Shown piece by piece: positions 37,969 through 56,236 of a stretch of DNA of 64,000 nucleotides; positions within the stretch are counted from its first letter, which is position 1, and the number at the start of each line of letters is the position of its first letter. This DNA comes from an uncultured Ignavibacteria bacterium (GTDB taxonomy: Bacteria > Zixibacteria > MSB-5A5 > SM1-73). Where the stretch lies: positions 5,139-69,138 of the forward strand of contig CAYOFL010000002.1 of assembly GCA_964403165.1 (NCBI GenBank), read 5' to 3'. Both the position numbers and the translations under genes were made by a program. The notes under the pieces are model-generated. The model saw only the letters and a program-made list of their open reading frames with translations. It was not told the DNA's origin and searched no databases.

Positions 37969-38024
37969 AGGTCTGCTTACTGGTATCTGCTTACCGGAGT
38001 CTGCTTACTGGAGTCTGCTTTCAC
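37969..38024. repeat. 14-nt (2 x 7) tandem repeat, 4 units
   Basis: Four (g)Rgtctgcttacyg-like units. The last unit overlaps the sbcC stop codon. Confidence 0.8.
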
Positions 38025-40414: not shown

Positions 40415-40426
40415 CCTTGAAAATCC

Positions 40427-40503
40427 ATGACGAATGATTAATGATGAATGATTGATGAAGGATGGTTGATGACGAATTTATTCGTCATTCGTCATTCGTC
40501 ATT
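40427..40503. repeat. Heptanucleotide repeat array with an inverted arm
   Basis: Seven ATGANNN-phased units (two of them the exact atgacga), then atttatt, then three cgtcatt units, which are the phase-shifted reverse complement of atgacga. The array spans the whole sbcD-sbcC spacer and overlaps the sbcD stop. Confidence 0.85.
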
Positions 40504-41704
40504 AGTCTTCATCTTCTACAGGTCTTACGGTCAAATACTTTAAACCTAACTCCAGCAATCTCTCTTTGTTTAGATTCTCCACCGGCATCTGTTTTAGAAA
40601 CTGTTCGAATTCGACATTAAGTTTACCAATGGAGGTCCCGGCGGTTTGATCCTTCGCCCTTTCTTTTTTTCTTTCTAATCTTAAGTCAAAATAAAAAGCT
40701 CTCGACTTCAGCTCGGCAATTTTACGAAAATCCAGGGAGTTGTATATATGCTCCGAAATGTCTTTAACCTTTAGCCTTACAATTTTTTCCTCAATGTTCT
40801 CTGTTTCGATTGTTTTTTCAATCTCCAGCAAGACCTGCTCTTGATCTAAATCCCTGGCATCGATAGAGAGGAGTTCAATCATCTCTCTGGTGGGGACTTG
40901 ATGGAACTTTACGTTTATGATTGGCGAAGATGTTTCTGTGGACTGTGGACTGTGGACTGTGGACGTCTCTATCTCCACTTCCACAAATCCCTTCTCTTGA
41001 CCCAGCTCCGCCATGGACACTCTTTCGGTCGATCCGGCATAATATACTCTCGGGCTCACCTGGCAAAAGCGGTGATAATGCCCCAGCGCCACATAATCGA
41101 AGGGCATCTCCAGATATGAGGATGGGATCTCCTGTTCAGCTAACTCACCCATGGAAAACTCCGGAATTCCTGCCACCACCCCATGTAGCATCAGAATGTT
41201 GAAGGTCAAATTCTGTCCGCTGTCGGCGGTCGGCCGTCCGCCGCAAATTTTTACTTTCGCCGCTTCCTTAGAGAAATCTTCCTGATCCAGACAGTGAGGA
41301 ATGGCATGGATAGCGACCTTATCAAGTTTTATTAACTCATACTGATTTCTGTATACCAGATGGAGATAAGGTGAGAAAACCTCAAAAAATGAGAAGACTG
41401 ATCCTACTGACCTCTGCTTGGGCGTATCGTGATTTCCTGAGATAATCACCATGGGAATTTTCAGATCCACTACCCGCAAAATCTGTCTAATGGCAAAATT
41501 GATGATTCGATTGGTGGGTCTTACCGTGTGAAAAAGATCACCACTATGCAGGACAAAATCAGGTTTTAGCTTGATTATCTGATCGATCGCAGATTCAAAG
41601 GAGGTGCAGATGTCCTCTTCTCTCTGATTAAATCCAGAGGGAGATAATTTGCGGGAGAATCCGCTTGCTCCCAGATGACTATCCGATATATGAACGAATC
41701 GCAT
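40502..41704 (-). CDS. sbcD: Mre11/SbcD-family nuclease
   Basis: Calcineurin-like phosphoesterase motifs: ISDSHLG, HSGDLFH, ISGNHD, MLHG and LGHYH. Confidence 0.92.
   Translation of the reverse strand: MRFVHISDSHLGASGFSRKLSPSGFNQREEDICTSFESAIDQIIKLKPDFVLHSGDLFHTVRPTNRIINFAIRQILRVVDLKIPMVIISGNHDTPKQRSVGSVFSFFEVFSPYLHLVYRNQYELIKLDKVAIHAIPHCLDQEDFSKEAAKVKICGGRPTADSGQNLTFNILMLHGVVAGIPEFSMGELAEQEIPSSYLEMPFDYVALGHYHRFCQVSPRVYYAGSTERVSMAELGQEKGFVEVEIETSTVHSPQSTETSSPIINVKFHQVPTREMIELLSIDARDLDQEQVLLEIEKTIETENIEEKIVRLKVKDISEHIYNSLDFRKIAELKSRAFYFDLRLERKKERAKDQTAGTSIGKLNVEFEQFLKQMPVENLNKERLLELGLKYLTVRPVEDED
40936..40963. repeat. Perfect heptanucleotide repeat (CTGTGGA x4) inside the sbcD coding sequence
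   Basis: ctgtgga x4. It encodes the STVHSPQST linker between the nuclease and C-terminal domains. Confidence 0.95.
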
Positions 41705-41725
41705 TAGTTAAATCGATTATTGAAT

Positions 41726-41753
41726 ACCAGAACCTAACTTAAGTTAGGTTCTG
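41726..41753. repeat. 28-bp perfect palindrome (family copy 2)
   Basis: ccagaacctaacttaagttaggttctgg, 22 nt upstream of the sbcD start. Confidence 0.95.
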
Positions 41754-41791
41754 GTTGATTAGGTTCTGGTGTCACAACTCTGCAAAGAGTC

Positions 41792-41892
41792 AATTGGTAG
41801 CCGCACCCTTCAGGGTGCGCAGTTTAAGAATCAAGCATTTAATTCTCGCAGGCTGAAGCTCATTTGAGTCAACTGACCTGCGGCTACCAATT
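41792..41892. repeat. Long-range stem element in the herA-sbcD spacer
   Basis: aattggtagccgca ... tgcggctaccaatt (14 bp) encloses the gcaccc-ttca-gggtgc hairpin and the tcatttgagtcaactgacc module shared with 15222. Confidence 0.7.
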
Positions 41893-41911
41893 CGGAATTT
41901 GCTACCACTCA

Positions 41912-43468
41912 TCAGAAAAAATCCCGATCAATTTTTGTTTTTTCAAATTCTTTTTCTTCCCTGGCTCTCCCTTTCAGCCATTCTTCATAAAGATGTATCT
42001 TCGCCGGAATGGCAAAGGGTGACTGAGGAGAGGTGATCAAAGCCTCACCCGCTTCCAGCATCTGAATCTCCGTGCCTAAATCAGAGATATCCTGCTTGGC
42101 TGAGGATTTCACTATGTTTCTATCCCTCTCATCAGCCAGCCCCAGAATGAACAGGGTGTTGAATTGAGACAGAAGCTCCTCGTCAATCAACTTTGGTTGC
42201 TGGGTGATGGCGCATAGACCGGTTTTAAACTTTCTTCCCTCTCTGGAGATCTGGGCAAAGATGTTTATGTCCGATCTCCCCTTTTGAGAAAGCACCCTCT
42301 GTGCCTCCTCCATCACGATGATGGTGGGCAAAAGAGCTTTGAATTTTGCTGGATCCTGATACGCTTTGCTGTGATGATAAAACACTGCTCGGGATAGGAC
42401 TGCGGATACCAAAAGCTCCTCCTGTTCGGACATATTGGAAGTGTCCACCAAGACCAGCTTGCCCGACTCCAGATCGTTAATCACATTTCTGGTGATAGAT
42501 AATTCCGGGTCTTTGTGGATGAATGGAAGCCTGAGAATTTGTTCCACTCTTCTCTGAATAACACCAGCGGTTGATTCAAAAAATCCTTTTCCGCTGGAAA
42601 GCTTAATTAGAAGATCCTCCATCCTAACGTGCGCTATCTCCTCCATCCAGTTTTGCCCGAACAAATATCTTGCCGCATAAAGCATCTCTACCTGCGGCTG
42701 GGTGAAATCGTAAATGTGACGGAAATCCTTTATGTCTATCTCCCGGGGGCTTATTTTAAGCTTGTTGTGAGGACCACCTAAATTTCGGGAGCTATAAACT
42801 CTCAGTCGCTTCTCAGCCAGGGGATGATCCACCAAACCCTTATGGGCTGGGTCTCCCCCACCATCGTAATACTCACCATGAGGATCTAAAATCAGCATGC
42901 CATATTGGGAAGATTCTAAAACCGAGCCGGCGAGAACTTTCATCAGATTGCTTTTGCCCATGCCGGTGGTGGCAAATATCCCAATGTGATAAGGAAAAAC
43001 CTCTCCTGAGATTCCCACCTGAAAGTCTAAAACATCCTCCCCCGATCTCAAAAACCCAACCTCCAGATCACCCATGAAATTTTTTAAGAATTCAAAATCA
43101 TTCTTCTGGGGACTCCTCACCCTGGAAAAATGAGAGGGTATGGTTTTGGGCTTTTTGAAGGTATTCCCTTTTATATATCCTAAGGGGACACATCGTCCCA
43201 CCTTATAAAGTCTTCTTTCCTTCTCCTGGAACTGGAAAGGCTCATTCTGTCTATCCAAAAGCATCATATTCCCCGCAGTCCTCTCCGCCCAGTTGGGATC
43301 GGATGCCTCCACTCCATAGCTTATGTCTACCGCTCTCAAAAAGTAGGGCAACCCTTTATCTTCGTCTTCGGCTAAAAGAATATCTCCCAGATGTAAGTCC
43401 TCTTCGTAAAAGGTTCGAAAATAAAGTTCGGTTATCTTCTTTCCGGTGATTCTTCCTTTATAGTCCAT
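41912..43468 (-). CDS. herA: HerA-like (FtsK/HerA superfamily, DUF87-type) ATPase
   Basis: Walker A IFATTGMGKSNL, Walker B-like TIIVMEEAQRV, 518 aa, next to nurA. Confidence 0.8.
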   Translation of the reverse strand: MDYKGRITGKKITELYFRTFYEEDLHLGDILLAEDEDKGLPYFLRAVDISYGVEASDPNWAERTAGNMMLLDRQNEPFQFQEKERRLYKVGRCVPLGYIKGNTFKKPKTIPSHFSRVRSPQKNDFEFLKNFMGDLEVGFLRSGEDVLDFQVGISGEVFPYHIGIFATTGMGKSNLMKVLAGSVLESSQYGMLILDPHGEYYDGGGDPAHKGLVDHPLAEKRLRVYSSRNLGGPHNKLKISPREIDIKDFRHIYDFTQPQVEMLYAARYLFGQNWMEEIAHVRMEDLLIKLSSGKGFFESTAGVIQRRVEQILRLPFIHKDPELSITRNVINDLESGKLVLVDTSNMSEQEELLVSAVLSRAVFYHHSKAYQDPAKFKALLPTIIVMEEAQRVLSQKGRSDINIFAQISREGRKFKTGLCAITQQPKLIDEELLSQFNTLFILGLADERDRNIVKSSAKQDISDLGTEIQMLEAGEALITSPQSPFAIPAKIHLYEEWLKGRAREEKEFEKTKIDRDFF

Positions 43469-43496
43469 CTCAGTGTCCTTTTTTTTATTGAAAGTT

Positions 43497-43524
43497 CCAG
43501 CACCTAACTTAAGTTAGGTGCTGG
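43497..43524. repeat. 28-bp perfect palindrome (family copy 3, variant)
   Basis: ccagcacctaacttaagttaggtgctgg. Confidence 0.95.
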
Positions 43525-43611
43525 AACCCGAGCCTCACACGACTCAAGATTCCTTTTTTTGATTGTCTATAGAAATTGTAATTCAAGATTTTATCCTCTT
43601 TTCATGAGTCA

Positions 43612-43666
43612 CGCGTAGGCAAGCCTTTACGGCTTGCATACCAAGCCATGAAGGCTTGGCTACGCG
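43612..43666. repeat. Y-shaped double-hairpin element
   Basis: cgcgtag[gcaagcc-tttac-ggcttgc]atac[caagcc-atgaa-ggcttg]gctacgcg. Confidence 0.75.
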
Positions 43667-43686
43667 ACCTTCTTCAATTGAGGGCA

Positions 43687-43714
43687 CCAGAACCTAACTT
43701 AAGTTAGCTTCTGG
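43687..43714. repeat. 28-bp palindrome (family copy 4, one mismatch)
   Basis: ccagaacctaacttaagttagcttctgg. Confidence 0.9.
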
Positions 43715-43727
43715 TCTCTGATTGATT

Positions 43728-44786
43728 TCATCCATTCAAATCCGCATTTAGCACCTCGTGAAAATCGGTAAACAGAAGATCCCAGTCTGAGGTGGTGACA
43801 CCTTTCTCAAAAGCCTTGGATTGCAGTTTATATTTGATATCTTCAATCTCTGATAAGGTGATTCGGGAGATATTATGAACTGCCGCCAGAGGATAAGGGT
43901 ATCCCAAAAATGCCGGATCGCCGGAAAGGTGTGACAAAACAGAAAAAATGAGATCTATATCCACCGGATCAAGCCGATTGACGTCTATCCGGAAGGCAAA
44001 ATTTGAGGAAGCTTTCAGCTTAGCCACGTATATCTTTCCCAGATAACTGGAACCGGTGGTATGAAGTTTCTCATCGGAAAGCTGGCAGAACCATTTTGAG
44101 TTGGGGCAGAACCTCTCCGCCACTTTGGAAACTGCCGGAATCAAGGGCGATTTATCTCCCCAGTAAAGGGTGCTGGTTTTGCTCACCCCCACCAGATGAA
44201 CCCCTTTATCTTTAGCTTTCCGGGCAAATTCAAGCATGAAATTATAAGGCGGCGCAATGCTCGCCTTAAGCGATCCATCGACAAGCAACACATCACCACT
44301 CTCCAGCTCATCTAAAAGCTTTTGTGTCATCCTCCATTCGGAGAAAAGGCGTAGGCGATCCAATATCTTCTCTATTCCCGGAGCTTTAGAAGGCTCTTCT
44401 CCAGTTAGATCACCATAGGCGGAATGATACATCCGGGAGAAATTAGCCTTTGAGATTATAACCAGCTTCAAGGGGATTATTTTCTGATCTATCCTTTTCC
44501 CCTGGTGATAGATAACCGAACCAACCCGATAGACACAGATCAAAAACGATCTACCTTTAACCACCGTAGCCGACCCGCCATCCACAGCCGCAATCTTTCC
44601 TTTAGGCTCCTCTTCCTTTATTATATGGAAGGAAAGCTCATCTAAATCCTTGTCTAAAAGCAAAGGCTCTTTTTCTTCCTCATCTGATTCCACCTCGATG
44701 TAGGAAGGCTCAGAATCCAATGCTTCTTGGATAAAGCTCACCGCCCTATTGATCTCATTCTCAATGGTTTCGTCTATGCCCAGCAT
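43728..44786 (-). CDS. nurA: NurA-domain nuclease
   Basis: IAAVDGGSATV and DVLLVDGSL are the two NurA acidic-residue motifs. 352 aa, immediately upstream of herA. Confidence 0.75.
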   Translation of the reverse strand: MLGIDETIENEINRAVSFIQEALDSEPSYIEVESDEEEKEPLLLDKDLDELSFHIIKEEEPKGKIAAVDGGSATVVKGRSFLICVYRVGSVIYHQGKRIDQKIIPLKLVIISKANFSRMYHSAYGDLTGEEPSKAPGIEKILDRLRLFSEWRMTQKLLDELESGDVLLVDGSLKASIAPPYNFMLEFARKAKDKGVHLVGVSKTSTLYWGDKSPLIPAVSKVAERFCPNSKWFCQLSDEKLHTTGSSYLGKIYVAKLKASSNFAFRIDVNRLDPVDIDLIFSVLSHLSGDPAFLGYPYPLAAVHNISRITLSEIEDIKYKLQSKAFEKGVTTSDWDLLFTDFHEVLNADLNG

Positions 44787-44860: not shown

Positions 44861-45532
44861 TTAGCAGGAAAGTGATTGCAAATAACGACACGTCCTCCTT
44901 AACGGACATTTTACACAATTAGGGCCACGTGGGCTACAAACAAGGGCTGTGAAATCAAGAATGGCAAGATTAGCTTTTCGAGGATTCCGCCCCGATGAGT
45001 ATGATCTAGCTATTTCCTTGATGTGCTTATCGCGACGGCCTTCTTTTGATGTTCTTACTCCAAAATAGCGCCTGAAGAGTCTCACGATGTTACTGTCAAC
45101 TATCCACTCTCTTTTTCCATAAGCAATAGACAAGACTGCACCCGCCACATAATCACCCACTCCAGGAAGTGTCAGTAGTTCTTCTCTTGTGTCAGGAACT
45201 TGACATCGGTATTTTTTCTTGATTTCTCGGGCTACAAGACGGAAGGCGGGTGTCCGCCACTTGAGCCCCAGAGGATACAAGATCTTGTGTATGCTTTGGC
45301 TCCTGGCATTGGCCAGTGATTCAATATCCGGGTACTTTTTAACTAACTGTTGATACACTCCTTTCACCTGATCTGCTTTCGTCCGTCTGAGCATCATTTC
45401 GGCCATCAAAATTTTAAAAGGGTCACGAGTCTCCCGCCAAGGATACTTTCGTCCATTCGTGTTGAACCAGCGAACGATTTTGGCTCTTAGGGCAATGATA
45501 TGCTCCCTTGAGGCTGTTAACTTGTCAGACAT
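44861..45532 (-). CDS. HhH-GPD / [4Fe-4S] DNA glycosylase, MutY-core-only (Mig-type)
   Basis: YPWRETRDPFKILMAEMMLRRT, HhH LLTLPGVGDYVAGAV, catalytic-Asp context VDSNIVRLF, and FeS cluster loop CSPRGPNCVKCPLRRTC. No NUDIX-like C-terminal domain. The start overlaps the dcm stop by 8 nt. Confidence 0.85.
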   Translation of the reverse strand: MSDKLTASREHIIALRAKIVRWFNTNGRKYPWRETRDPFKILMAEMMLRRTKADQVKGVYQQLVKKYPDIESLANARSQSIHKILYPLGLKWRTPAFRLVAREIKKKYRCQVPDTREELLTLPGVGDYVAGAVLSIAYGKREWIVDSNIVRLFRRYFGVRTSKEGRRDKHIKEIARSYSSGRNPRKANLAILDFTALVCSPRGPNCVKCPLRRTCRYLQSLSC

Positions 45533-46898
45533 GAATCTTCTTCAACTCTCTAAGAATTGCCTTGGCAATAGCACGAGCCAGTAAAGGCGGCACGGCATTA
45601 CCGACTTGCCTGAACTGCTCCGTTCGTGGACCCTCAAATTTGAAGTTATCTGGAAATGATTGACACCGAGCCGCCTCTCTAACGGTGAAGGAACGGCACT
45701 GTTTGATATCAGGATGAATATAGTAGTGTCCATCCTTGCAAATGTGAGCGGTAATGGTTGAAGATGGGCGAGACCACCATTGAACCTTGAATCTATCGAG
45801 AAATTTATCAAGATGTCGGTGGTTAGGGATAAGATCGAGTCTTTTCTCTTTGAGGTGCCTTAAAGTTGCAGGTCCATTTCCGTTTTGGTGATGTTCAATA
45901 AAGAATTTATATCTTTCAAGATCGCTCTTCATGTGTGTTCTTGCCTTATGATTGAGAATCCCTTGAGAATTTAGCCTCATTTTTGCCTGATAATATGTCA
46001 GATTCATATTAGAATCATAATATCCATACCAGCCATCATTTCCCTCACCCGGCTTCAACGGGGGAAAATCACCTATGGCGTCATCTACGGTAAGACGCCC
46101 ATGTTTTCTGTTATCCCGTGCCTGTTTCTGTAAGCTTGAAAACACTTCTCTTATACTTGGATTTTTGTCTTCCAGAGATTTCCTATATCCGATAAGGATC
46201 AATCTCTTTCTGTTTTGCGGAATATGGAAGTCTGCACTGTTAAGAATATAACTACACGGATCCTCATAAATTTGTTCCAAAGGCGGTATAATTTCGTAAG
46301 GAGGATTTAATGATGAAAAATCGTTCAGTATTTTGATGAATATTTTCTTTCCTTCTGCTTTTGCGCTGAAAAGACCGGGAACATTTTCGTAAACGAAAAA
46401 ATCTGGTTGAACAGACTCAAGAATGTCTAGATAATATCTGTAAAGGTAATGTCTACCATCGTTTTCCATTCTTGACGGGTCTCTGGCTCTTCCGACCAGC
46501 GAGTAAGGCTGGCAGGGCGGTCCTCCAAGTAGCACGTGGAACTTCGAGGCACCATGAAACCTTCTGCTGTACTCAACTTTCTCAAGTATGCAGTCTGTTC
46601 GCTCCTTTCCAAGTGTGGCTTGAATGATCCTAGGCGAGATTGCCTGCAGGACGTGCGGGAATTTATTAAGAATGTCTTCGCGAGGGATTTCCCCGTGGAG
46701 GTATTTCTGGTACAAATGGCTTTTTCTGATTCGTTTCAATGCAAAATACAATTGTCGGGTTCTAAGCGTTTCACATGCCCATTTATCCATTTCAATCTGC
46801 GCTATGAGTTCAAATCCTGCCTGTCTAAATCCTTCACTCAACCCACCAGCACCAGCGAAAACGTCAATTGCATAATATATCTTATCCTGCAATTTCAT
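45525..46898 (-). CDS. dcm: DNA (cytosine-5)-methyltransferase
   Basis: Motif I DVFAGAGGLSEGF, IV GGPPCQPYS, VI ENVPGL, VIII QNRKR, and X QVGNAVPPLLA. Confidence 0.95.
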   Translation of the reverse strand: MKLQDKIYYAIDVFAGAGGLSEGFRQAGFELIAQIEMDKWACETLRTRQLYFALKRIRKSHLYQKYLHGEIPREDILNKFPHVLQAISPRIIQATLGKERTDCILEKVEYSRRFHGASKFHVLLGGPPCQPYSLVGRARDPSRMENDGRHYLYRYYLDILESVQPDFFVYENVPGLFSAKAEGKKIFIKILNDFSSLNPPYEIIPPLEQIYEDPCSYILNSADFHIPQNRKRLILIGYRKSLEDKNPSIREVFSSLQKQARDNRKHGRLTVDDAIGDFPPLKPGEGNDGWYGYYDSNMNLTYYQAKMRLNSQGILNHKARTHMKSDLERYKFFIEHHQNGNGPATLRHLKEKRLDLIPNHRHLDKFLDRFKVQWWSRPSSTITAHICKDGHYYIHPDIKQCRSFTVREAARCQSFPDNFKFEGPRTEQFRQVGNAVPPLLARAIAKAILRELKKIHV

Positions 46899-47493
46899 GC
46901 TTAATCTTCCTGTTAAGTTTCTGTAGCTGACTTCTTAGTTCCTTTGCTGTCCAATTATTTATGCAACAATCCCTAACGATTCGGTAGATAGCTTGCTTGT
47001 CTTTGACAATAGCCTTATACTCCAGAATATCGAACCATCTGGACCAAGTCATCCCACTGTAAAATACTATTTTCTCGGGGATTTTTGCAAGCATATACAT
47101 ATGCTCAGGATACCTCGACACTTTTTCGAGGGAAGGAGTCCTTCCTTTATCTACCATGAGATCGTGAAAAAGTCGACGGAATGCTTCATTTCTTGAGGAT
47201 TCATCCCTCAAATTCAGGTCATCTACGAACTGCAATATTTTGCCAAGATTATACCATCGCCTCAGTACGTTCTTGGCTCGCGACGTTTTCTTTATATAGT
47301 CTTTTATTTCGACTGCCCGTCTCTTTATAACTTCATCATCCTCGTCTAGGTCTAATGCCTCCTCGAGAAGATTTTCCAACGATCCACTCCCTAGGGTAAT
47401 TTCAAGTGCATCATCAAAGGTGTACTCTTTCCCATCACCATCTATGTATTTTCTCTTTCTTTTTTTTACTTTCTTCCTTCCCATTTCGCTCAT
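46882..47493 (-). CDS. hypothetical protein (about 203 aa), translationally coupled between the GHKL ATPase and Dcm
   Basis: The ATG at 47493 forms an ATGA overlap with the upstream stop, and the 3' end overlaps the dcm start by 17 nt. Basic N-terminus, acidic patch, helical C-terminus. I recognise no family. Confidence 0.6.
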   Translation of the reverse strand: MSEMGRKKVKKRKRKYIDGDGKEYTFDDALEITLGSGSLENLLEEALDLDEDDEVIKRRAVEIKDYIKKTSRAKNVLRRWYNLGKILQFVDDLNLRDESSRNEAFRRLFHDLMVDKGRTPSLEKVSRYPEHMYMLAKIPEKIVFYSGMTWSRWFDILEYKAIVKDKQAIYRIVRDCCINNWTAKELRSQLQKLNRKIKHEIAG

Positions 47494-49379
47494 CTTCCTC
47501 TCAAATAGGCTGCCCACATTTCATCAAAAAGGTCTTTTGATTTTTTAATCTCTGCTATATCATAAGATATTTCATCGTCTTGCCACCAACTTAGACTTAT
47601 CTCTCTTACTGCCTCGTGAAGGGCTATGTTTATGACTATTGGATAGGTTTCGCGAGCCTTTTGTTTTCTTGTAAGAGAACTCGATTTCCACAACATTTCG
47701 ATTTCTGGGTACGCCGTGTTTACCAGAAGTTCCCCTTTATCGTTAATTGGTAGATTCCTTAGATTCGCTTTAGGACCCCCGAGGGACTGTAATATTAGTT
47801 TTCTTAGCCAACCACCCATCGGGGGAGGGTCTTGTTGGAAATAGAAAACAGCTGTTCTCTCATGTCGTGCCTCTGGAGACCTGCATTCCAAGCGTGCTCT
47901 CAGGAGATACCTACCCCTTGTGAGGGACAACCCGGACAGGTCAATATCAGGAAATTGCAAGACTTTATGCGTTTCGGATTCTATCTTAAATCTTCCTATG
48001 TAATTCGACCAGATTTCTGCTCCACTAGAACTTTCAATCCAGCACTTTAACTTGATTAACGCATTCTTGGGGGTAGTGTTTCTTACTCCCCCCTTTACTT
48101 CCATCAGGTCTCCCGGATCGAATCTCTTACTGGTACCGTGATACCCCCATGGCGATATATGAACAGGCGGAAGGGGTTTGCTTGGACCCACCGGGCCATT
48201 ACCTTCTCGTTTTCTTGACCCTTTCCCCAGACCTTCTAGGTGTTCATCTACTAGTTTATTAACAGTTCGTATAACCTCGTCAAGATCCATCGGTGGGGGG
48301 TTAACTTCTTTTCTCCGTGTATATTTGGCTAAGAACTCCTCGGTCATAGCATCAATTTTCTGCCTTAGTTTAACCCATATGACTTTTCTGCTTTCAAATC
48401 CCTCGTGATTCGCTAGCTCTATTTTCCACATCTCTTCATCTAGCTCTTCATCCATCATACAGTATCCATATGCTCTCTGCCTTATTTCGTCTGGGATGGA
48501 ATAAGGCAGGCTGTGCCTGCACACAGTCATTTTTCCCCTTTGAATGGCAATTCCCCTCAGAGAAGCTGATACCGAATTCTTGGCGAGTACGACTTTCAGT
48601 TTCCGCAGTTTGCCGTGTCCTTTCTCAATTACTAACCTTTCTTTAGTGGTGTGATCCATGGTATCATGAAACTGTGGCAAACCTATTTTCGTCAAATCAC
48701 TCTTAGCATCTTTCGTGATTCTCACCTCAATATCAATTCCGTAGTTTCTTATCAATTCCCACCAAGACTCAGAAAGCTGCTTGGAAAAATATCCGCCAAC
48801 TATTTCATCCGCAAGATCTGGTTTAATATCCAGAATCCATATTCTTGTGCCAATATGATTTAATTTAGATATCGAAGGGAAAAAGTCGTCGATTAACTTC
48901 AATGAACCGTTCGCTTTTTTGACCCAATCAGGATCATCTGCACTCGGAGCATCGTTTTCCTGCCAGTAACCCACATTAGTTCTTATTGAATATCTGTATT
49001 TCTCCCCATCGTAATCAATCGATTCTGTCAGAATCCTATTGCTTGAAGAAAGAAACAGGTATAGGGTCTTTCCTTGCCCCCATCTGCCGATACCTCCGCG
49101 ATAGTCCCCTTTCGTTGACACCCAGTGCGAATGAAACGCCTTCCATCTCTTGCTGTTCATTCCCACAGTGCCAAAATCTTCAAACATTAGCACATTTGCA
49201 TTGCCATCGAGCTCTTTGAAAAACTCATACACCATCTTGAATCCGGTGCCTTGCTTTCTATTAATTCTGGCCTCCCAAGAGTTTTGCATTGAATCCTTTG
49301 CAAATCCTCGGATTTTGTCATCATATTGCCTAGATATTATCTCATCAAGATTGCTGAGGTCTGCTTTTATCTCTCTCAT
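47490..49379 (-). CDS. GHKL (Bergerat-fold, MORC/paraMORC-like) ATPase with an uncharacterised ~430-aa C-terminal region
   Basis: N-box DSMQNSWEA, G1 EDFGTVGM, G2 GGIGRWGQGKT, and a GT-strand IGTRIWILD, all in the first ~190 aa. Confidence 0.7.
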   Translation of the reverse strand: MREIKADLSNLDEIISRQYDDKIRGFAKDSMQNSWEARINRKQGTGFKMVYEFFKELDGNANVLMFEDFGTVGMNSKRWKAFHSHWVSTKGDYRGGIGRWGQGKTLYLFLSSSNRILTESIDYDGEKYRYSIRTNVGYWQENDAPSADDPDWVKKANGSLKLIDDFFPSISKLNHIGTRIWILDIKPDLADEIVGGYFSKQLSESWWELIRNYGIDIEVRITKDAKSDLTKIGLPQFHDTMDHTTKERLVIEKGHGKLRKLKVVLAKNSVSASLRGIAIQRGKMTVCRHSLPYSIPDEIRQRAYGYCMMDEELDEEMWKIELANHEGFESRKVIWVKLRQKIDAMTEEFLAKYTRRKEVNPPPMDLDEVIRTVNKLVDEHLEGLGKGSRKREGNGPVGPSKPLPPVHISPWGYHGTSKRFDPGDLMEVKGGVRNTTPKNALIKLKCWIESSSGAEIWSNYIGRFKIESETHKVLQFPDIDLSGLSLTRGRYLLRARLECRSPEARHERTAVFYFQQDPPPMGGWLRKLILQSLGGPKANLRNLPINDKGELLVNTAYPEIEMLWKSSSLTRKQKARETYPIVINIALHEAVREISLSWWQDDEISYDIAEIKKSKDLFDEMWAAYLRGR

Positions 49380-49572
49380 TTGTAACCTCCCTTCTTTTCT
49401 TACTCAAGTTTCCTTTCACGAGTCTTACTGCTGTTTTCTTCGTTTTACATCCAATCGCTCGCTTCAGTCATCCAGTTGATAAGTTCAATTGAATTCTCTT
49501 CATCCTTACTATAAGATTCCGCCTAATCCAACAACAAATCCGTTACCAACAAGCGCTAAGTCATCTGCTTCC

Positions 49573-50520
49573 TTATCTGCTGGTGCTACCTTCTTGCCCG
49601 ATGAAAATCTTACAGTCACAAGGAGCTTTACCACATTTAGGGCACAGCAGTCTTCTCCCGCGAGTCTTATACACCCTTTGAAGGAGGAAACTAGGTTTGG
49701 GTGCCCTAATCAACGGTGACTCGGTTTCCTTAAATATCTGTGCGATTTTAAGAAACAATGCATTCCACCAAGAAAAAGCATCTGCAATCTCGACAGCTAG
49801 CGATAACTTAAGATCGACGGCTGTGCGCAATCCTCCGGTGGTTCCCTTGTGCATGTATTTTTTTACAGCACTCTCCACAGAGTTGATTTTTTTCACTTCG
49901 GAAGGGAACTTTGCTGCTTCTTCGTTGAGCCTTCTTATCGCATTGGCTACCTCACCGACCTCCTCCATAAAGTGGAAAGCAACATGTTCAAGACTGAGGC
50001 CACTGATTATATCGCCGTAAGCTTTCTCAAACATCCTTGTCCAGTCGTCAAGTTTCTTCGCCCTATACCCTGCATTGTCTGTGCGGAACTGCTTTCTTTT
50101 GTCAAAAAGCGTTCCATATTGAGCCTTCTTGTCGCTAATACTCTCAATTGCCTCCCTAACCAAACCACAGGTGCATTTGGGGCTGCCGCAAATACCGCAA
50201 ACTCCAGGATACTTGAAGGCGACAATGTCAGCGAAAGTGTCTGTGAACTTGAAGGAAGCTGACACAATTGGATCATTGTGTAGCTTTGCAGCGAAGCTAA
50301 CAATCCAAGTGAACGCATCGACCATGTGGACTAGCAGGTCATTCATAGCATAACGTCTTACATCTTCTGCAATTTTACTTGCGTACTCTATTGTGCATAA
50401 CCACATTAAGGGAACAGAACGTTTACAGTCGTGGTGTCCGTACAGTTTCCACATTTCGTCAGCCCACTTGTCAGGGGTCCATTTTCTCAAATCAGTTACG
50501 GCTTGTTTTTTCTTGGCCAT
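49573..50520 (-). CDS. tandem MazG-like (all-alpha NTP pyrophosphohydrolase fold) protein with two Cys4-type knuckles
   Basis: Second half: HFMEEVGEVANAIRR ... LAVEIADAFSWW (EExGE / ExxD motifs). First half is degenerate: IEYASKIAEDVRR ... MVDAFTWI. Cys motifs CGICGSPKCTC and CPKCGKAPCDC. ATG at 50520 follows GGAGG. Confidence 0.55.
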   Translation of the reverse strand: MAKKKQAVTDLRKWTPDKWADEMWKLYGHHDCKRSVPLMWLCTIEYASKIAEDVRRYAMNDLLVHMVDAFTWIVSFAAKLHNDPIVSASFKFTDTFADIVAFKYPGVCGICGSPKCTCGLVREAIESISDKKAQYGTLFDKRKQFRTDNAGYRAKKLDDWTRMFEKAYGDIISGLSLEHVAFHFMEEVGEVANAIRRLNEEAAKFPSEVKKINSVESAVKKYMHKGTTGGLRTAVDLKLSLAVEIADAFSWWNALFLKIAQIFKETESPLIRAPKPSFLLQRVYKTRGRRLLCPKCGKAPCDCKIFIGQEGSTSR

Positions 50521-50534
50521 ACGAAACCTCCTAG

Positions 50535-50969
50535 CTAGGGCTTGTCTGACACTATTCCAAAAGCCTGTATTTTCCACTTCCCTCTCTTTTTGTATAGAAA
50601 GAGCTTAAGCGGTTTTTCAACCTGCAAAGATTCTTTTTCACCTGTTGAGTATGCCAAACTCAGCTTCAATCTAACCTCCGCACTATCCCTGACGATCACA
50701 AACATCTTACTTGTTATCCGGGCACCTTCAAGCTTCTTCCCCAAGGACAGGCTATCCAAAAGCCGGGAAGATATATTTTGCTTTTTGTCCAGTGTGATTG
50801 AGTCCAAAATTGTTTCACTTCTTTGGTTTACTCCTCTTTCAAATTTTGCCAAAAGTTGCTTTAAAAGTGCCACTTCATCATCCGGCTTTTTGCCCACACA
50901 TCCACAAATCAATAAAGCTACAAGAGACGTCCAGGCAACTTTAAAGAGATATCTTGGTCTATTCATCAT
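50535..50969 (-). CDS. putative lipoprotein
   Basis: MMNRPRYLFKVAWTSLVALLICGC looks like a signal peptide with a lipobox-like ICGC. No family recognised and no clear SD. Confidence 0.5.
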   Translation of the reverse strand: MMNRPRYLFKVAWTSLVALLICGCVGKKPDDEVALLKQLLAKFERGVNQRSETILDSITLDKKQNISSRLLDSLSLGKKLEGARITSKMFVIVRDSAEVRLKLSLAYSTGEKESLQVEKPLKLFLYKKRGKWKIQAFGIVSDKP

Positions 50970-51363: not shown

Positions 51364-53244
51364 ATGAATTGGAAAAGATTAATAAACCTTATCCTGGTTT
51401 TCTCCTTTTTCCCTTTCGCAGCAGAAGCTCAACGCTTTTTGGCTCCTGACTCCAATATCATCAAACTCTCCAGCACCCTGTGGTCCGACCTGAGAGACAT
51501 CAAGTTTCGACAGTCCAAAGCTTTTTGTCTGTTCTTCGACGGATTGACTATCGAAAATCTATCCGACATCAATTCACCTTCCCGGATTGGTCAGGTGGAG
51601 CTTCCCTCAAATGGTCAGAAAGTGGATGTTTGGGGTAACTATGCTTATGTTATCGCCACAGATAGCCTAATGCATTTGATAGACCTTTCATCAGTTAACC
51701 AGCCTCTCCTAAAAAACAGCTTTAAAATTCCCCATCTCCCTATGGATATAAAAGTGCGGGACAATTGTGCGTATGTGTCTGCAAAAGATGCCGACCTTTT
51801 GGTTCTGGACGTGTCGAATCCGTTCAATATCTCTTTGATCGGTTCATGTAGCGTAGCTGATTTTCAGGCTCTTTCTCTTTATTTACATGGTAATCTGGCT
51901 TATCTTGCAGGAATGGGAGGTTTGAGGCTCATCAACATTGTGTTTCCTTACTCTCCTTTCTTGTTCGGGTCAAGTGATGCTGTGCCGGGAGCAAATAAAG
52001 TTTTTATCAACCAGGAGAATGAAAGAATCTATGCTTATTTGGGCAATCCAGCACAGCTTGGTATTCTGGATGTTACCAATCCCAGGGATATTTTTCCGCT
52101 TTCCAGTTACTGGTCAACATCTACCATAGCTGGTATTTCCGTCTCAGGAGATTATGCCTATCTGGGCTTAAACTTTCGCGGGCTTCTGGTTCTGGACATT
52201 AAGGACAGGGCTTCTCCAAACGAAGTCTCTGCCCTTTGGTTGGGAGACAACACCAGAGGAATCTTTTTCTATTCTGATTTTGTCTTTGTTACTGACAACT
52301 TCAGCCCAACAGCGATTATCAATGTCTTTAATCCTGATCGCCCCTTTGTATCTGGCAGATGGATTCTTCCCGGCACATGTAAGGATGTAGTTGTGAAAGA
52401 TGATTTCGCTTACGTGATGTGTGACCATTCCGGACTTCACATATTAAATGTGGGGGACCCAAACCATCCTCAGGAGATAAGCACTCTTCATGCCCCTTAT
52501 AACAACAATGATGTTGATATTGAAGGAGATTATGTTTACATTACCGCACTTTTACCTGGAATGCAGGTGGTGGATATAACAGATCCCTCTAATCCAGAGG
52601 TGGTAGAAAGATACCAGCCAGAGGGATATACTTATGGGGTAAAAGTAAAACAAGGATATGCTTATCTTCATAATTCCCAAAATGATATTCAGATCCTAGA
52701 CGTCCAGAATCCTACAAGCCTCATCCTTAGAGGATCTATTCAGACTCCGGGAACCCCACAGGAAATTTTCATACGAGGCGAGTATCTTTACGTTGCAGAC
52801 CTATCTGCAGGATTGACCATTATAAATGTGGCTGATAAAGATCATCCTTTCCTGGTCAGATCCATCCCTACGGTGGGAAGATGCAAGAACGTATTTTCAT
52901 CAGGCAATCTTTTGTTTTTATCCTGTGAGGATGTAGGAATGGAGATATATGAGATCACTGATCCAGAAACACCGGAGTTCCAAAGCTTTTATTCTACGTC
53001 TGACGAAATTAAAGATTTGTATGTGGAAAATCATTACGCCTATTTGACCATGGAAAATCACAAAATAGAGGTGATTGACATCGCCTCTCCTTATACTCCT
53101 GTTCTTGTTGCCAGCTATGACCTTCTGGACAATCCGGGCAATTTAATGGTAAAGAATGAACACATTTATCTTTGTGACCGTCGCTCCTTTAAAATTTTGA
53201 GATTTCTCCCGCATCCCAGGTTGGTTCAGCCACATCCAAAATAG
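51364..53244 (+). CDS. secreted LVIVD-repeat beta-propeller protein
   Basis: Signal peptide, then more than 10 repeats of the pattern Y(A/V)Y.....GL.ILDV.NP..P (e.g. LLVLDVSNP, GMQVVDITDPSNP, GLTIINVADKDHP). Confidence 0.85.
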   Translation: MNWKRLINLILVFSFFPFAAEAQRFLAPDSNIIKLSSTLWSDLRDIKFRQSKAFCLFFDGLTIENLSDINSPSRIGQVELPSNGQKVDVWGNYAYVIATDSLMHLIDLSSVNQPLLKNSFKIPHLPMDIKVRDNCAYVSAKDADLLVLDVSNPFNISLIGSCSVADFQALSLYLHGNLAYLAGMGGLRLINIVFPYSPFLFGSSDAVPGANKVFINQENERIYAYLGNPAQLGILDVTNPRDIFPLSSYWSTSTIAGISVSGDYAYLGLNFRGLLVLDIKDRASPNEVSALWLGDNTRGIFFYSDFVFVTDNFSPTAIINVFNPDRPFVSGRWILPGTCKDVVVKDDFAYVMCDHSGLHILNVGDPNHPQEISTLHAPYNNNDVDIEGDYVYITALLPGMQVVDITDPSNPEVVERYQPEGYTYGVKVKQGYAYLHNSQNDIQILDVQNPTSLILRGSIQTPGTPQEIFIRGEYLYVADLSAGLTIINVADKDHPFLVRSIPTVGRCKNVFSSGNLLFLSCEDVGMEIYEITDPETPEFQSFYSTSDEIKDLYVENHYAYLTMENHKIEVIDIASPYTPVLVASYDLLDNPGNLMVKNEHIYLCDRRSFKILRFLPHPRLVQPHPK

Positions 53245-53524: not shown

Positions 53525-56236
53525 TTAGAGGCTACATGGAGGCGGTCCACCTTTGTAGAGGTAATTTATCAGATAAACAACGTCTCCGATGTTCACCTCT
53601 CCATTACAATCAAGATCGCCAGTCATCAGAGGATAAGGTGCAGAACCGTCTCTGTAAAGATAATTGACGAGAAAGATCACATCTCCGACATCTATTGAGC
53701 CATCACCAGTAACGTCACCAACTTGGACTGGCGGAAGCTCTATATCGATCCCGCTCACCTTCCCGGATCCTATCTCCACAGGATCAGGATACGATCCATC
53801 GTTATACGATACCATGGAGGCATAAACAGTGTAACTGCCGGGGAGAAGCCCATTTATTACATAGCCTCCTTCAGAGGAGCTTCTGGCGAACCCTCTCACT
53901 TCTCCATCTAATTGTGCATAAACCAAGGCTCCCTCGAGAGGTGAACCATTGGAGCTGATCACACCACAGATCCTTCCTCCTCCTGAGTCAAATGGCACAA
54001 GATAAAAATCTACATTGTAAGCGTCGGGCGTTACTAAAGTAGCTTCTTCCCAGGTATAGACACCGTCATAGAACTCGCCGATGTATCCGGGGGCGATTGC
54101 AAATACATAGTAATCGTCAGTTTGTAACCCTTGAATTATGTATGCTCCCACAGAATCGGTAAAGTCAAATCCCCAATTTCCATTCAAAGAAATGGCGAAA
54201 ACGATAGCATAGGGTATGGGTAAAAGCGTGCTGTCCTCCAAAACTCTTCCCGCAATTATTCCTTCACCGGGACCTCCATAAGGAACTAAAGCGAAGTCAA
54301 TACCAGGAGTATCTTGACCTTCGATCACGGTTACAACAGTGGGATAATCCTGCGGATAATAATCCCATGCCCAGGCAGTGACAAAATAGTCCCCGGCATA
54401 AAGACCAAAGATTGTATACTGGCCCAAAGAATCTGTTTCAGCCTGACCTCGACCAAACTCCCCATACGTCCAAACACAAGCGCCCGCAATCGGTTGACCA
54501 GTACTCGAGTCGGTAACAGTTCCGGAAATCGAGCCAGCTTCACCTATAGGTGTAAGAGCGAAGTTGATATTGGGTGTATCTTCACCAGCAATCACAGGCA
54601 CCGAATCCGGATAGGTTTCTGGAATATAACCTTGCGCATTCGCATTAACTTGATAAGTACCAGCGCACAGGTTTGGGATCATATAATAACCGCCGGTATC
54701 ACTCCAAGCCTCTCCGTAACACCAGTTATCCAAACCAATGGCTATCAGATGAGCCATGATAATGGGGAGATCAGTCTCTTCATCAGTCACCCGGCCTGAA
54801 ATTGAGCCATATCCACCAAAAGGTGTTAAGGCAAAATCAATATTGGGCGTATTCTGTCCTGCAATCACAATCACCGAATCCGGATAGGTTTCTGGAATGT
54901 AGCCATCTTTTCGGGCATTCACCTCATATGCATCCGGGGGAAGGTTATCACATAAGTAATAACCAGCAGTATCGGTATACCAGATGCAATATATCCCAGT
55001 TATAGTGATCTCTGCCATTACAATGGGGAGACCGGTATCTTCATCAATCACTCTGCCTGAGATCGAGCCAAACTCCGGACCACCAACAGGAGTGAGAGCG
55101 AAGTTGATGTTGGGAGTGCTCTGCCCCTCAACCACAATCACTGAGTCCGGGTAGGTCTCTGGGATGTATCCCTGTGCATGCGCGTTCACCTCGTAGATGC
55201 CAGGACACAGATGTGGGATTATGTAATAGCCGTCGGTATCACTCCAGGCCTCTGCATAACACCAGTTATCCAAGCCTATGGCTATCAGGTGAGCCATGCT
55301 AATGGGAAGACCAGTCTCCTCATCAGTCACCCTGCCTGAAATTGAACCGTACTCAGCTATAGGTGTTAGGGCGAAGTTAATATTTGGTGTATTCTGTCCT
55401 GCAATCACAATCACCGAGTCCGGATAGACCTCCGGAGCATAACCCTCCTTACTGGCAACCACCTGGTAGATCCCAGGGCACAGGTTTTGGATGCCATACC
55501 AACCGCCGGTATCACTGAAAGCCTCTCCGTAACACCAGTTATCCAAGCCGATGGCTCTCAGGCGAGCCATGATAATGGGGAGACCTGTCTCCTCATCAAT
55601 AACCTGGCCTGTAATCAAACCGTACTCGGCTACGGGCGTTAAGGCAAAGTCAATATTGGGCGTATTCTGTCCCGCAACCACGATCACCGAATCCGGATAG
55701 GTCTCTTGATAGTATCCGGTTGCATAGGCATTGACCTCATAAGCATCAGGAGGGATGTTATCACACATGTAGTTGCCAGTTGAGTCCGTGTACCACACAC
55801 AATATATCCCGCTTAGAGTAATTGCCGCCCCTTCGATGGGGTAACCGGTTACCCCATCCGTAACTCTCCCGGAAATCGATCCGAATTCTCCACCCACTGG
55901 GGTTAGGGCAAAATTGATGTTAGGTGTATTCTGCCCTTCCATAACAGTCACCAATCTAGGATAGACCTCATCTTCATAACCGTCCTTATGAACTCCTACT
56001 ATATACTGCCCAGCTACGAGATTATGTATGAGATAATATCCGTCAGTGTCTGCCCATGCCTCCCCTCCGCCATGAGTGCTGCTATCATAAGCCCAGACAT
56101 GAGCCGAGGGAATTGGGAAACCTGTCACCTCATCTGTGACTATCCCTGAAATCGACCCGAACTGAGCAAACGCCAACCCCGGAAAGATGACCAAGAGAGT
56201 CAAACTCAGAAGCACAACCAAGAATCTCCCTTTCAT
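53525..56236 (-). CDS. surface protein with about 10 tandem carboxypeptidase-regulatory-like (CarboxypepD_reg) domains and a dockerin-like C-terminus
   Basis: Signal peptide, then repeated ~92-aa units (GSISGRVTDEETGLPI...GYIPETYPDSVIVIAGQNTPNI.FALTP), and a C-terminal double dockerin-like module. Confidence 0.88.
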   Translation of the reverse strand: MKGRFLVVLLSLTLLVIFPGLAFAQFGSISGIVTDEVTGFPIPSAHVWAYDSSTHGGGEAWADTDGYYLIHNLVAGQYIVGVHKDGYEDEVYPRLVTVMEGQNTPNINFALTPVGGEFGSISGRVTDGVTGYPIEGAAITLSGIYCVWYTDSTGNYMCDNIPPDAYEVNAYATGYYQETYPDSVIVVAGQNTPNIDFALTPVAEYGLITGQVIDEETGLPIIMARLRAIGLDNWCYGEAFSDTGGWYGIQNLCPGIYQVVASKEGYAPEVYPDSVIVIAGQNTPNINFALTPIAEYGSISGRVTDEETGLPISMAHLIAIGLDNWCYAEAWSDTDGYYIIPHLCPGIYEVNAHAQGYIPETYPDSVIVVEGQSTPNINFALTPVGGPEFGSISGRVIDEDTGLPIVMAEITITGIYCIWYTDTAGYYLCDNLPPDAYEVNARKDGYIPETYPDSVIVIAGQNTPNIDFALTPFGGYGSISGRVTDEETDLPIIMAHLIAIGLDNWCYGEAWSDTGGYYMIPNLCAGTYQVNANAQGYIPETYPDSVPVIAGEDTPNINFALTPIGEAGSISGTVTDSSTGQPIAGACVWTYGEFGRGQAETDSLGQYTIFGLYAGDYFVTAWAWDYYPQDYPTVVTVIEGQDTPGIDFALVPYGGPGEGIIAGRVLEDSTLLPIPYAIVFAISLNGNWGFDFTDSVGAYIIQGLQTDDYYVFAIAPGYIGEFYDGVYTWEEATLVTPDAYNVDFYLVPFDSGGGRICGVISSNGSPLEGALVYAQLDGEVRGFARSSSEGGYVINGLLPGSYTVYASMVSYNDGSYPDPVEIGSGKVSGIDIELPPVQVGDVTGDGSIDVGDVIFLVNYLYRDGSAPYPLMTGDLDCNGEVNIGDVVYLINYLYKGGPPPCSL

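Follow-up and report, generated by a model that had tools for sequence, protein, structure and literature searches.

A GHKL ATPase with an obligate helical partner, linked to a C5 methylase and a Mig-type glycosylase, forms a conserved two-module cassette with a predicted restriction-like function

The gene cassette analyzed here lies in a stretch of 64,000 nucleotides (nt) from contig CAYOFL010000002.1 of an uncultured Ignavibacteria bacterium; this whole stretch is called the window, and coordinates are window positions unless a locus number precedes them. Four tightly packed open reading frames (ORFs), all on the minus strand and together spanning 44861-49379, encode a GHKL ATPase (g1), a small partner protein (g2), a C5 cytosine DNA methyltransferase (Dcm, g3) and a glycosylase of the Mig type (g4) (Table 1). 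Comparison with related loci revealed that the cassette is a composite of two modules, an obligate pair of GHKL and g2 and an exchangeable pair of Dcm and repair enzyme, which have been repeatedly recombined.

The positions of the four ORFs and their 17-nt and 8-nt overlaps were exactly those given in a preliminary description made from the letters of the window. The overlap of g2 and g3 is ATGAAATTGCAGGATAA (46882-46898) and that of g3 and g4 is ATGTCTGA (45525-45532), g4 overlapping the Dcm stop codon. An ATGA overlap between g1 and g2 had also been proposed, and the string is indeed present at 47490-47493. However, the N-termini of g2 homologues line up at MGRKK, the public JGI gene call for g2 on the same contig has 200 amino acids (aa), and a Shine-Dalgarno sequence (AGGAAG) is located 9 nt before the ATG at 47484 but abuts the ATG at 47493. 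For these reasons the functional start of g2 is probably ATG 47484, giving a protein of 200 aa and a 5-nt spacer past the g1 stop codon rather than an overlap; the longest ORF (46882-47517) has 211 aa. The tight coupling of g1 and g2 is unaffected by the choice of start. Scans for consensus promoters and for terminators gave no signal above that of shuffled sequences, searches around the cassette found neither flanking direct or inverted repeats nor an adjacent tRNA, and the GC content of the cassette was not distinctly different from that of its flanks.

Table 1. Features of the cassette, with positions in the window
Feature	Position	Strand	Description
g1 (gene 1)	47490..49379	-	GHKL ATPase, 629 aa, from a superfamily without annotation; stop codon at 47490-47492
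g1 Bergerat-fold ATP-binding domain (aa 1-215)	48735..49379	-	placed by motif positions, conservation and predicted secondary structure
g1 transducer (S5-like) domain (aa 216-385)	48225..48734	-	placed by Foldseek alignment span; invariant R281, acidic/His patch E321-x-x-x-H325
g1 disordered Gly/Pro/Lys-rich linker (aa 386-400)	48180..48224	-	predicted local distance difference test (pLDDT) <50 at residues 387-399
g1 immunoglobulin (Ig)-like beta-sandwich domain (aa 401-556)	47712..48179	-	all-beta prediction at 406-555; R419 and N434 conserved
g1 C-terminal helical hairpin (aa 557-629)	47493..47711	-	predicted helices 558-564, 571-600 and 608-628
g2 (gene 2)	46882..47484	-	basic helical partner protein of about 200 aa; alternative starts 47493 and 47517
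g3 (gene 3)	45525..46898	-	457-aa C5 cytosine DNA methyltransferase (Dcm)
g4 (gene 4)	44861..45532	-	223-aa Mig-type HhH-GPD/[4Fe-4S] mismatch glycosylase, 'V' gene
Upstream intergenic region	49380..49572	-	193 nt; presumed promoter site; strong ribosome-binding site AAGGGAGG precedes g1

Sequence searches with g1 of Pfam, NCBIfam, PADLOC, PHROGs and the PDB gave no match, including none to HATPase_c or HATPase_c_3 at E<=0.1, and its membership of the GHKL group therefore rests on fold and motifs. All four Bergerat motifs that had been proposed were present, QNSWEA at residue 32, EDFGTVGM at 67, GGIGRWGQGKT at 95 and GTRIWI at 177, which provide motifs I (D29...N33), II (D68-x-G70-x-x-G73), III (G98/G101/G103-K104) and IV (G177-T178). 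Conservation was measured across 52 diverse members of the superfamily. Residues N33, D68, G70, G73, G98, G101, G103, K104, G177 and T178 were conserved in 90-100% of these, and the position of the general base, canonically Glu, is occupied by Asp (D29, 87%), so that the ATP-binding residues and the transducer Arg together range from 87 to 100%. Outside the ATP-binding motifs the superfamily conserves R281 (invariant), E314, E321 (98%), H325 (100%), R419, N434 and N554.

The AlphaFold2 (AF2) model of g1, built with 39 homologues, had a mean pLDDT of 85.9. Its Foldseek matches included Hsp90/TRAP1 (3.5e-13), the ATPase module of SMCHD1 (1.2e-12, target template-modelling (TM) score 0.5), GyrB (8e-9) and MORC3 (2.4e-8, target TM 0.52), with alignments of about 400-450 columns that reach the Hsp90 middle and SMCHD1 transducer domains; MutL was not among the top 50 structural matches. 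The predicted structure thus confirmed g1 as a true Bergerat-fold GHKL ATPase with a transducer domain. By this domain g1 belongs to the DNA-acting GHKL+S5 subgroup (MutL, topoisomerase II/VI B, Hsp90, MORC), with R281 as the putative contact of the gamma-phosphate. The beta-sandwich domain found lower-ranked Foldseek matches in the C-terminal domains of transglutaminases, in GH3 and in arrestin beta-sandwiches, and the helical hairpin that follows it is a candidate dimerisation element. No nuclease fold was detected anywhere in g1, its C-terminus included, by Pfam, NCBIfam, PADLOC or structure searches, in agreement with the suggestion that the C-terminal region is not a classical nuclease.

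The g2 protein is basic, and its AF2 model (pLDDT 78) consists of an N-terminal beta-hairpin followed by eight helices. No match was found in Pfam, NCBIfam, PADLOC, PHROGs or the sequences of the PDB, superfamily profiles included, or in a viral structure library. The closest structural match by Foldseek, weak but consistent, was the helix-turn-helix (HTH) DNA-binding domain of ParB/Noc (E 0.25, probability 0.99). Across its superfamily g2 conserves only G84, W150, W153, W/F105, R167 and R187; since only Trp, Gly and Arg positions are conserved, with no conserved catalytic constellation, the alignment is not that expected of an enzyme. A nuclease role for g2 was rejected, as neither a conserved catalytic set nor a nuclease-fold match was found, which upholds the view that g2 is not an ordinary restriction nuclease. 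An assignment as HEPN RNase was likewise rejected: the Foldseek matches to HEPN had probabilities of 0.1-0.2 and a TM of 0.19, and the R...H pair of a possible Rx4-6H motif did not line up in register, only 32-46 of 70 members having it.

The two remaining genes were readily assigned. Matches of g3 to Pfam DNA_methylase (1.3e-56) and TIGR00675 (4.3e-48), together with motifs I (DVFAGAGG), IV (GGPPCQ), VI (ENVPG), VIII (QNRKR) and X (GNAVPP) in its translation, bear out that it is a complete C5 methyltransferase; its PDB relatives include M.HaeIII, and its top PADLOC model was DrmMII (3.8e-139, full length). For g4 the top PDB match was 1KEA (Mig.MthI; 5e-44, full length), with MutY behind at 6e-40. 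At 162.6 bits the protein falls short of the cut-off for MutY equivalogs (286.5 bits), and it is without the MutY C-terminal domain, as expected if it is the MutY-core-only, Mig-like glycosylase originally proposed, and the motif Cys-x6-Cys-x2-Cys-x5-Cys is readable in its translation. We therefore predict that g4 is a T:G mismatch glycosylase of the Mig type adjoining a C5 methylase. It also matches, end to end, the PADLOC REase_II 'nicking endonuclease' model (2.7e-46), a label which, by the matches above, refers to a V-type repair enzyme. Judged from their sequences, g3 and g4 are the classic pair of methylase and 'V' gene.

A word-indexed search found 47 relatives of g1 and 23 of g2, with no Pfam domain on record; the few that carried a source name were all called 'hypothetical protein'. 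An exhaustive profile search enlarged the g1 superfamily to 504 representatives (50% clustering, E<=1e-3; 254 at E<=1e-30) of 600-870 aa. Among the 52 diverse members only one matched HATPase_c_3 (E 0.0078), and against PADLOC v2.0.0 there were only three weak matches, to the candidate model PDC-M33A (1e-3), with none for g1 or g2. The superfamily profile of g1 had no match in the PDB; its comparison by hhalign with one canonical HATPase_c_3 protein (probability 2.9%) was uninformative. Pfam, NCBIfam, PADLOC and the PDB thus leave the families of g1 and g2 essentially uncovered at the sequence level, and no description of them was found in the literature beyond general MORC/paraMORC predictions. 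Hosts include Patescibacteria (Candidate Phyla Radiation, CPR), Chloroflexota, Omnitrophota, Bacteroidota, Planctomycetota, Gammaproteobacteria and Bacillota, the last with the cultured Neobacillus bataviensis LMG 21833, Paraliobacillus quinghaiensis, Rossellomorea aquimaris, Sporosarcina and Peribacillus. Archaeal hosts, Asgard lineages among them, were Thor-, Bathy-, Nano- and Woesearchaeota and one Atabeyarchaeia genome. No cyanobacterial member was seen among 80 genome loci, and searches of IMG/VR viral contigs and of 72,556 plasmids brought up no relatives.

Named genomes supplied 80 non-redundant loci for the comparison of gene neighbourhoods and metagenomes another 79; in these, ORFs were called and labelled with hidden Markov models, and the neighbours were clustered. 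Linked genes were counted over the 80 genome loci, over the 44 with good flanks, or over the 137 related loci whose GHKL gene is full-length, and co-evolution was expressed as the correlation (rho) of pairwise similarities across loci. In 125 of 137 loci the next gene downstream of GHKL was of the g2 family, and the gap never exceeded 30 nt (median 2 nt), showing that g2 is an obligate partner of the ATPase. The correlation was 0.79 for GHKL and g2 and 0.58 for Dcm and HhH-GPD; between GHKL and Dcm it was 0.18, and between GHKL and HhH-GPD 0.11. Since rho is high within each module and low between modules, these results indicate that the two modules evolve separately.

The accessory genes were far more variable. 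Dcm (293-645 aa) was present in 46 of the 80 genome loci, 25 of the 44 with good flanks and 65 of the 137 overall, in variable position and orientation. The HhH-GPD glycosylase (18/80 genome loci) and Vsr (14/80; Pfam 8.8e-33), also variable in position, never occurred in the same locus. Only one of the 80 genome loci had a repair gene but no Dcm, as did a few more from metagenomes (L104, L109, L144). The repair enzyme therefore travels with the methylase and not with the GHKL gene; both it and Dcm lie beside GHKL-g2 in 19 of the 44 good-flank loci. The families that recurred in the 149 other neighbours were PIN (6), resolvase (4), HNH (3), Mrr (2), GmrSD (2) and AAA_15 (2), and for adenine or N4 methylases no family had as many as two members, showing that the methylation link is specific to C5. 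Helicases and nucleases of the restriction endonuclease (RE) fold were not recurrent neighbours in the related loci.

In the subclade of the window (>=53% identity) the order GHKL, g2, Dcm, HhH-GPD was kept in six of seven informative distinct loci, with Dcm translationally coupled to g2 in the window's clade, and the same four-gene order was found again at 25-30% GHKL identity. The cassette occurs in at least five unrelated flanks, among them a transporter with an Rce1 gene, the dcw cluster, TonB and type IX secretion system (T9SS) genes, and here nurA. Recurrence across many unrelated genomic settings, down to 25% GHKL identity, places the arrangement beyond chance, and the cassette is confirmed as a real, conserved feature. 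The preliminary description had it as a four-gene operon, expected to be co-conserved, that forms a methylation-linked module with a predicted defence or epigenetic role. The recurrence of the order supports the first point, although the operon is not one indivisible unit. The second is supported by Dcm in about half of the loci, but strict dependence on methylation is not established, because about 43% of the good-flank loci are without a nearby Dcm. Taken together, neither g1 nor g2 turned out to have an ordinary nuclease fold, the Bergerat fold was present and the genes were co-conserved.

The flanks of the cassette in the window appear unrelated to it. A complete operon of rad50 (797 aa), mre11 (400 aa), herA (518 aa) and nurA (352 aa) lies 74 nt downstream on the same strand (38021-44786); its HerA also matches the PADLOC HerA and mad8 models. 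Since NurA, HerA, Mre11 and Rad50 have no counterparts in about 160 related loci, they were rejected as parts of the system, and the adjacency, earlier read as a nuclease-rich island, looks coincidental. Upstream on the minus strand, 49573-50577 encodes a 334-aa Cys-rich protein (CGICGSPKCTC ... CPKCGKAPCDC). It had been called MazG-like, but the MazG match was below threshold (E 0.037), and having no homologue in about 160 related loci this gene was also rejected as a part of the system. Farther away are two genes unrelated to the cassette, assigned by eye: 51364-53244 (plus strand), for a 626-aa LVIVD-like repeat protein, and 53525-56236 (minus strand), for a secreted protein of 903 aa in which about eight carboxypeptidase-regulatory-like repeats stand in tandem and the C-terminus is dockerin-like.

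Other loci carry genes that are not found in the window. A protein family of about 75 aa (C3) was encoded directly upstream of GHKL in 33 of the 80 genome loci, and a protein of about 346 aa (C6), with an N-terminus that looks ribbon-helix-helix-like by eye, directly upstream in 12. C3 has the consensus ERFxRLAxxRTNxVLxxLRxLGNCSNRxxYxY...KIF and no Pfam match, occurs in about 45% of loci (L001:6337-6564, L010:7669-7887, L042:7714-7941 and about 90 others), and correlates weakly with GHKL (rho 0.20). Since the window cassette is without C3, C6, DUF2130 and Vsr, the system at this locus is exactly four genes. In a sister clade, whose GHKL is 41-43% identical to that of the window, the typical order is C6, DUF2130, a Hjc-like protein of about 130 aa, GHKL, g2 and HhH-GPD, with Dcm on the opposite strand; the three upstream genes are seen at L004:5986-8004 and in L105, L109, L121, L124, L134 and L136. 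DUF2130 has been catalogued in the PD-(D/E)XK superfamily (PMC3424549), and it and the Hjc-like PD-(D/E)XK protein are candidate nucleases of the sister clade, not present in the window cassette.

Several rarer arrangements were observed. At L109:7702-8610, L104:3209-4117 and L144:2699-3592 a 303-aa protein with SAD_SRA and HNH_2 domains, the architecture of a 5-methylcytosine (5mC)-dependent type IV nuclease, follows GHKL, g2 and HhH-GPD in the slot usually taken by Dcm, with no Dcm within 6 kb; a Mig-like glycosylase is nevertheless kept there. A relative with 62% identity (L096:8584-12437) has, after g2, an SbcCD-like pair of Metallophos (459 aa) and AAA_23 (826 aa) proteins, a one-off whose kinship with the Mre11 and Rad50 of the window was ruled out by lack of similarity. 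Just upstream of the cassette in a 25%-identity relative (L010:6397-7233, also L011 and L012) is a divergent gene for a 278-aa Mrr_cat protein, which is not a conserved component because Mrr was seen in only two of the 149 neighbours. In N. bataviensis LMG 21833 (L042) and P. quinghaiensis (L043) the order is Dcm ... Vsr ... C3, GHKL (778-786 aa), g2; the GHKL gene of N. bataviensis is BABA_10541, annotated 'hypothetical protein'.

We read the cassette, with a probability of about one half, as a mobile, composite, 5mC-linked, restriction-like DNA-surveillance system of two modules. Dcm would methylate the DNA of the host and so mark it as self, and g4 would remove T from the T:G mispairs left by deamination of 5mC, limiting the mutagenic cost of the mark. 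Proteins of the MutL/MORC layout dimerise when they bind ATP and clamp around DNA. The GHKL protein, with its ATP-gated N-terminal dimerisation module, flexible linker and C-terminal domains, probably forms such a clamp, with g2 most likely as the DNA-binding adaptor or loader of the complex. Using ATP, the GHKL-g2 complex would survey DNA and act on that without resident C5 methylation, such as phage or plasmid. Given the free exchange of the linked Dcm genes beside GHKL-g2, what the complex reads is probably the methylation or state of the DNA in a generic way and not the sequence recognized by the methylase. With no nuclease encoded, the terminal step might be non-nucleolytic clamping, occlusion or compaction, the recruitment or activation of host enzymes, or catalysis at a cryptic site at E321-x-x-x-H325, a patch that may instead be an interface for the conserved arginines of g2. 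In the sister variants the DUF2130 and Hjc-like PD-(D/E)XK proteins would cut the DNA. The surveillance reading is supported by the GHKL and transducer fold of the g1 model with its intact ATP-binding residues, and the neighbours of defence type (PIN, resolvase, HNH, Mrr, GmrSD, SRA-HNH) and the unrelated flanks count in favour of a mobile defence system.

Several results weigh against this reading. The 43% or so of good-flank loci with GHKL-g2 and no nearby Dcm are unlike classical restriction-modification (R-M) systems, in which restriction without methylation is lethal, and the low correlation of Dcm and GHKL could fit functionally independent neighbours equally well. No nuclease is encoded in the clade of the window cassette. 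Neither plasmid or IMG/VR relatives nor flanking repeats were found that would point to a route of mobility, and no member of the superfamily has a known phenotype. The Asp at the general-base position of g1 suggests that ATP turnover may be slow or that the ATPase serves as a switch, and a DNA-binding role of g2 would be based on a structural match that is not significant (E 0.25).

The two modules may simply be neighbours, GHKL-g2, alone or joined by the small upstream protein, being a methylation-independent defence or abortive-infection pair and Dcm-Mig an unrelated orphan pair. The shuffling of the modules (rho 0.18), the minimal loci with C3, GHKL and g2 and no methylase (L016-L018 and L139, for example) and loci of the P0047 type, which hold the GHKL-g2 pair alone, all agree with such independence. 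We nevertheless regard it as unlikely, since the overlap between g2 and Dcm is 17 nt in this cassette and 8 nt in relatives, the order is kept down to 25% GHKL identity, and about half of the loci carry a C5 methylase while no other class recurs, a 5mC-specific association far above random expectation; moreover, in some loci without Dcm its slot is filled by SRA-HNH, the architecture of a 5mC-reading nuclease. Slightly more doubtful is a private form of very-short-patch repair, in which GHKL-g2 would be a MutL-like matchmaker at T:G that stimulates the glycosylase or Vsr and spares the mutagenic cost of a mobile Dcm, especially in hosts without MutS/MutL. Many of the hosts are CPR bacteria, DPANN or Asgard archaea, lineages that often lack canonical mismatch repair. 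The MutL-like layout of the GHKL protein, the 19 of 44 good-flank loci with Dcm and a repair gene beside the pair, and the functional interaction of E. coli MutL with Vsr (cited in PMC2292703) point the same way. However, more than half of the GHKL-g2 loci have no repair gene and about 43% no Dcm, GHKL and HhH-GPD do not co-evolve (rho 0.11), the sister clade gains PD-(D/E)XK nucleases and not repair factors, and the neighbours are of defence-island type. Dcm-Vsr pairs are, besides, common without any such ATPase.

By analogy with the MORC and SMCHD1 proteins, the cassette might also be a nuclease-free, methylation-guided clamp, GHKL-g2 entrapping, compacting or occluding DNA without (or with) resident 5mC, so that invading DNA is silenced and not cut. 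This possibility, which draws on the accessory set of Dcm, HhH-GPD (plant 5mC glycosylases are of the same superfamily) and, at certain loci, a 5mC reader with an SRA domain, we hold to be quite doubtful. It is highly improbable that the glycosylase is itself the restriction effector, following the logic of R.PabI, with GHKL-g2 directing base excision on unmethylated DNA and host apurinic/apyrimidinic (AP) endonucleases breaking the abasic sites. g4 is the sole enzyme of a DNA-cleaving type in the operon, in the sister clade HhH-GPD follows g2 co-directionally with Dcm on the other strand, and L104, L109 and L144 retain HhH-GPD without Dcm; yet its nearest solved relative, Mig.MthI, is a T:G repair enzyme, Vsr can take its place but is never found alongside it, the glycosylase follows Dcm (rho 0.58) and not GHKL (rho 0.11), and it is missing from more than 70% of GHKL-g2 loci. 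Least credible of all is a signalling pair, with g1 as 'kinase' and g2 as 'regulator' controlling the methylase, as was proposed for HEF_HK together with Response_reg_2 between Dcm and Vsr. Although the order Dcm, large GHKL, partner of about 200 aa, Vsr is analogous (PMC8011034) and g2 may bind DNA, neither HEF_HK, HisKA nor receiver domains were matched at E<=0.1, the transducer of g1 is typical of DNA-acting GHKL ATPases with no DHp domain, and g2 is all-helical and not of the receiver fold.

The definition of the GHKL superfamily (504 clusters) and its obligate partner fills an annotation gap that extends over CPR bacteria, Chloroflexota, Bacillota, Asgard and other archaea. If the pair is a defence module, it would be a new immune system with 5mC self-marking and, in most variants, no known nuclease. 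It would then be relevant to the action of MORC-type clamps on DNA, and also to the old proposal that prokaryotic restriction-like systems gave rise to MORC-based epigenetic silencing in eukaryotes. If the clamp reading were true, the family would be a prokaryotic counterpart, bacterial and Asgard-archaeal, to the set of 5mC writer, reader and eraser plus MORC that eukaryotes possess. The cultured hosts (N. bataviensis LMG 21833, R. aquimaris, P. quinghaiensis, Sporosarcina and Peribacillus) make the question directly approachable.

Among known systems, DISARM class 2 was ruled out, as a scan of the proteins of the cassette and of the neighbours downstream matched none of DrmA, DrmB, DrmC and DrmE, nor did any of them appear in related cassettes; with no other Drm genes, the DrmMII match of g3 reflects the methylase subfamily only. 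A type II R-M system was rejected as well: the methylase is present, but no fold or family of a cognate nuclease was found in g1 or g2. Module 2 resembles the setting of Mig.MthI, to which g4 is similar in length (223 vs 221 aa), in its HhH-GPD domain and iron-sulphur cluster, in being without the MutY C-terminal domain and in the adjoining C5 methylase. The methylase paired with Mig.MthI we take to be M.MthTI of Methanothermobacter, presumably on plasmid pFV1, and the partner in the MthTI system presumably is a classical type II endonuclease, in place of which the window cassette has GHKL-g2. With MutL, g1 shares the GHKL and transducer domains, flexible linker and C-terminal domain as well as a link to methylation-related mismatch processing, in which MutL activates Vsr and MutH. 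It differs in having a C-terminal Ig-like sandwich and helices rather than the MutL dimerisation/endonuclease domain, and no MutS-like partner is present.

Clusters of Dcm, HATPase_c_3/HEF_HK/HATPase_c, Response_reg_2 and Vsr, without experimental characterisation, were reported by Bellieny-Rabelo et al. 2021 (PMC8011034). In them too a C5 methylase and a deamination-repair gene go with a large GHKL protein and its small partner, but the families are others, PF19191 (HEF_HK), PF19192 (Response_reg_2) and HATPase_c(_3) being unmatched in g1 and g2 at E<=0.1; those clusters are mainly proteobacterial, whereas the family of the window is found mainly in uncultured phyla, archaea and Bacillota. 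A validated relative in architecture is VcSduA, a GHKL-Shedu anti-phage protein (formerly annotated as paraMORC3) whose ATPase is needed (PMC12137116). It likewise has an N-terminal GHKL ATPase and a clamp-like middle domain, and it sets the precedent that paraMORC-type ATPases can control anti-phage effectors. On the other hand, VcSduA is a single gene with its own C-terminal PD-(D/E)XK (DUF4263) nuclease and no linked methylase, whereas g1 ends in a beta-sandwich and helices and has its partner in a separate gene.

The closest counterparts are the MORC and paraMORC1-5 proteins, GHKL+S5 ATPases predicted by Iyer, Abhiman and Aravind in 2008 in R-M-like operons containing Dcm and Vsr (PMC2292703). 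The likeness includes a GHKL+S5 ATPase beside Dcm and a very-short-patch repair gene, a patchy bacterial and archaeal spread consistent with lateral transfer, and a predicted ATP-driven manipulation of DNA in restriction-like systems. An ExxxH at the C-terminal end of S5, represented here by E321 and H325, recalls paraMORC2, a single verbal feature compared by description only. There are several differences. The S5 signature GhXhhpXXRhl of MORC (PMC2292703) is absent, its place being taken by RGIAIQRGxM with Arg at +5 and not +8; the published neighbourhoods centre on superfamily II (SFII) helicases and RE-fold nucleases, neither of which is found here; the family of the window escapes the HATPase_c_3 profile; and it has an obligate helical partner of about 200 aa and HhH-GPD, not Vsr, as the repair gene. 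The theme of GHKL+S5 and Dcm was thus already predicted in 2008, and what is new here is the two unannotated families and the obligate pairing of GHKL and g2. The cassette, whose function is predicted, fits best among the 5mC-linked, restriction-like systems of the paraMORC type, as a variant that uses these two families.

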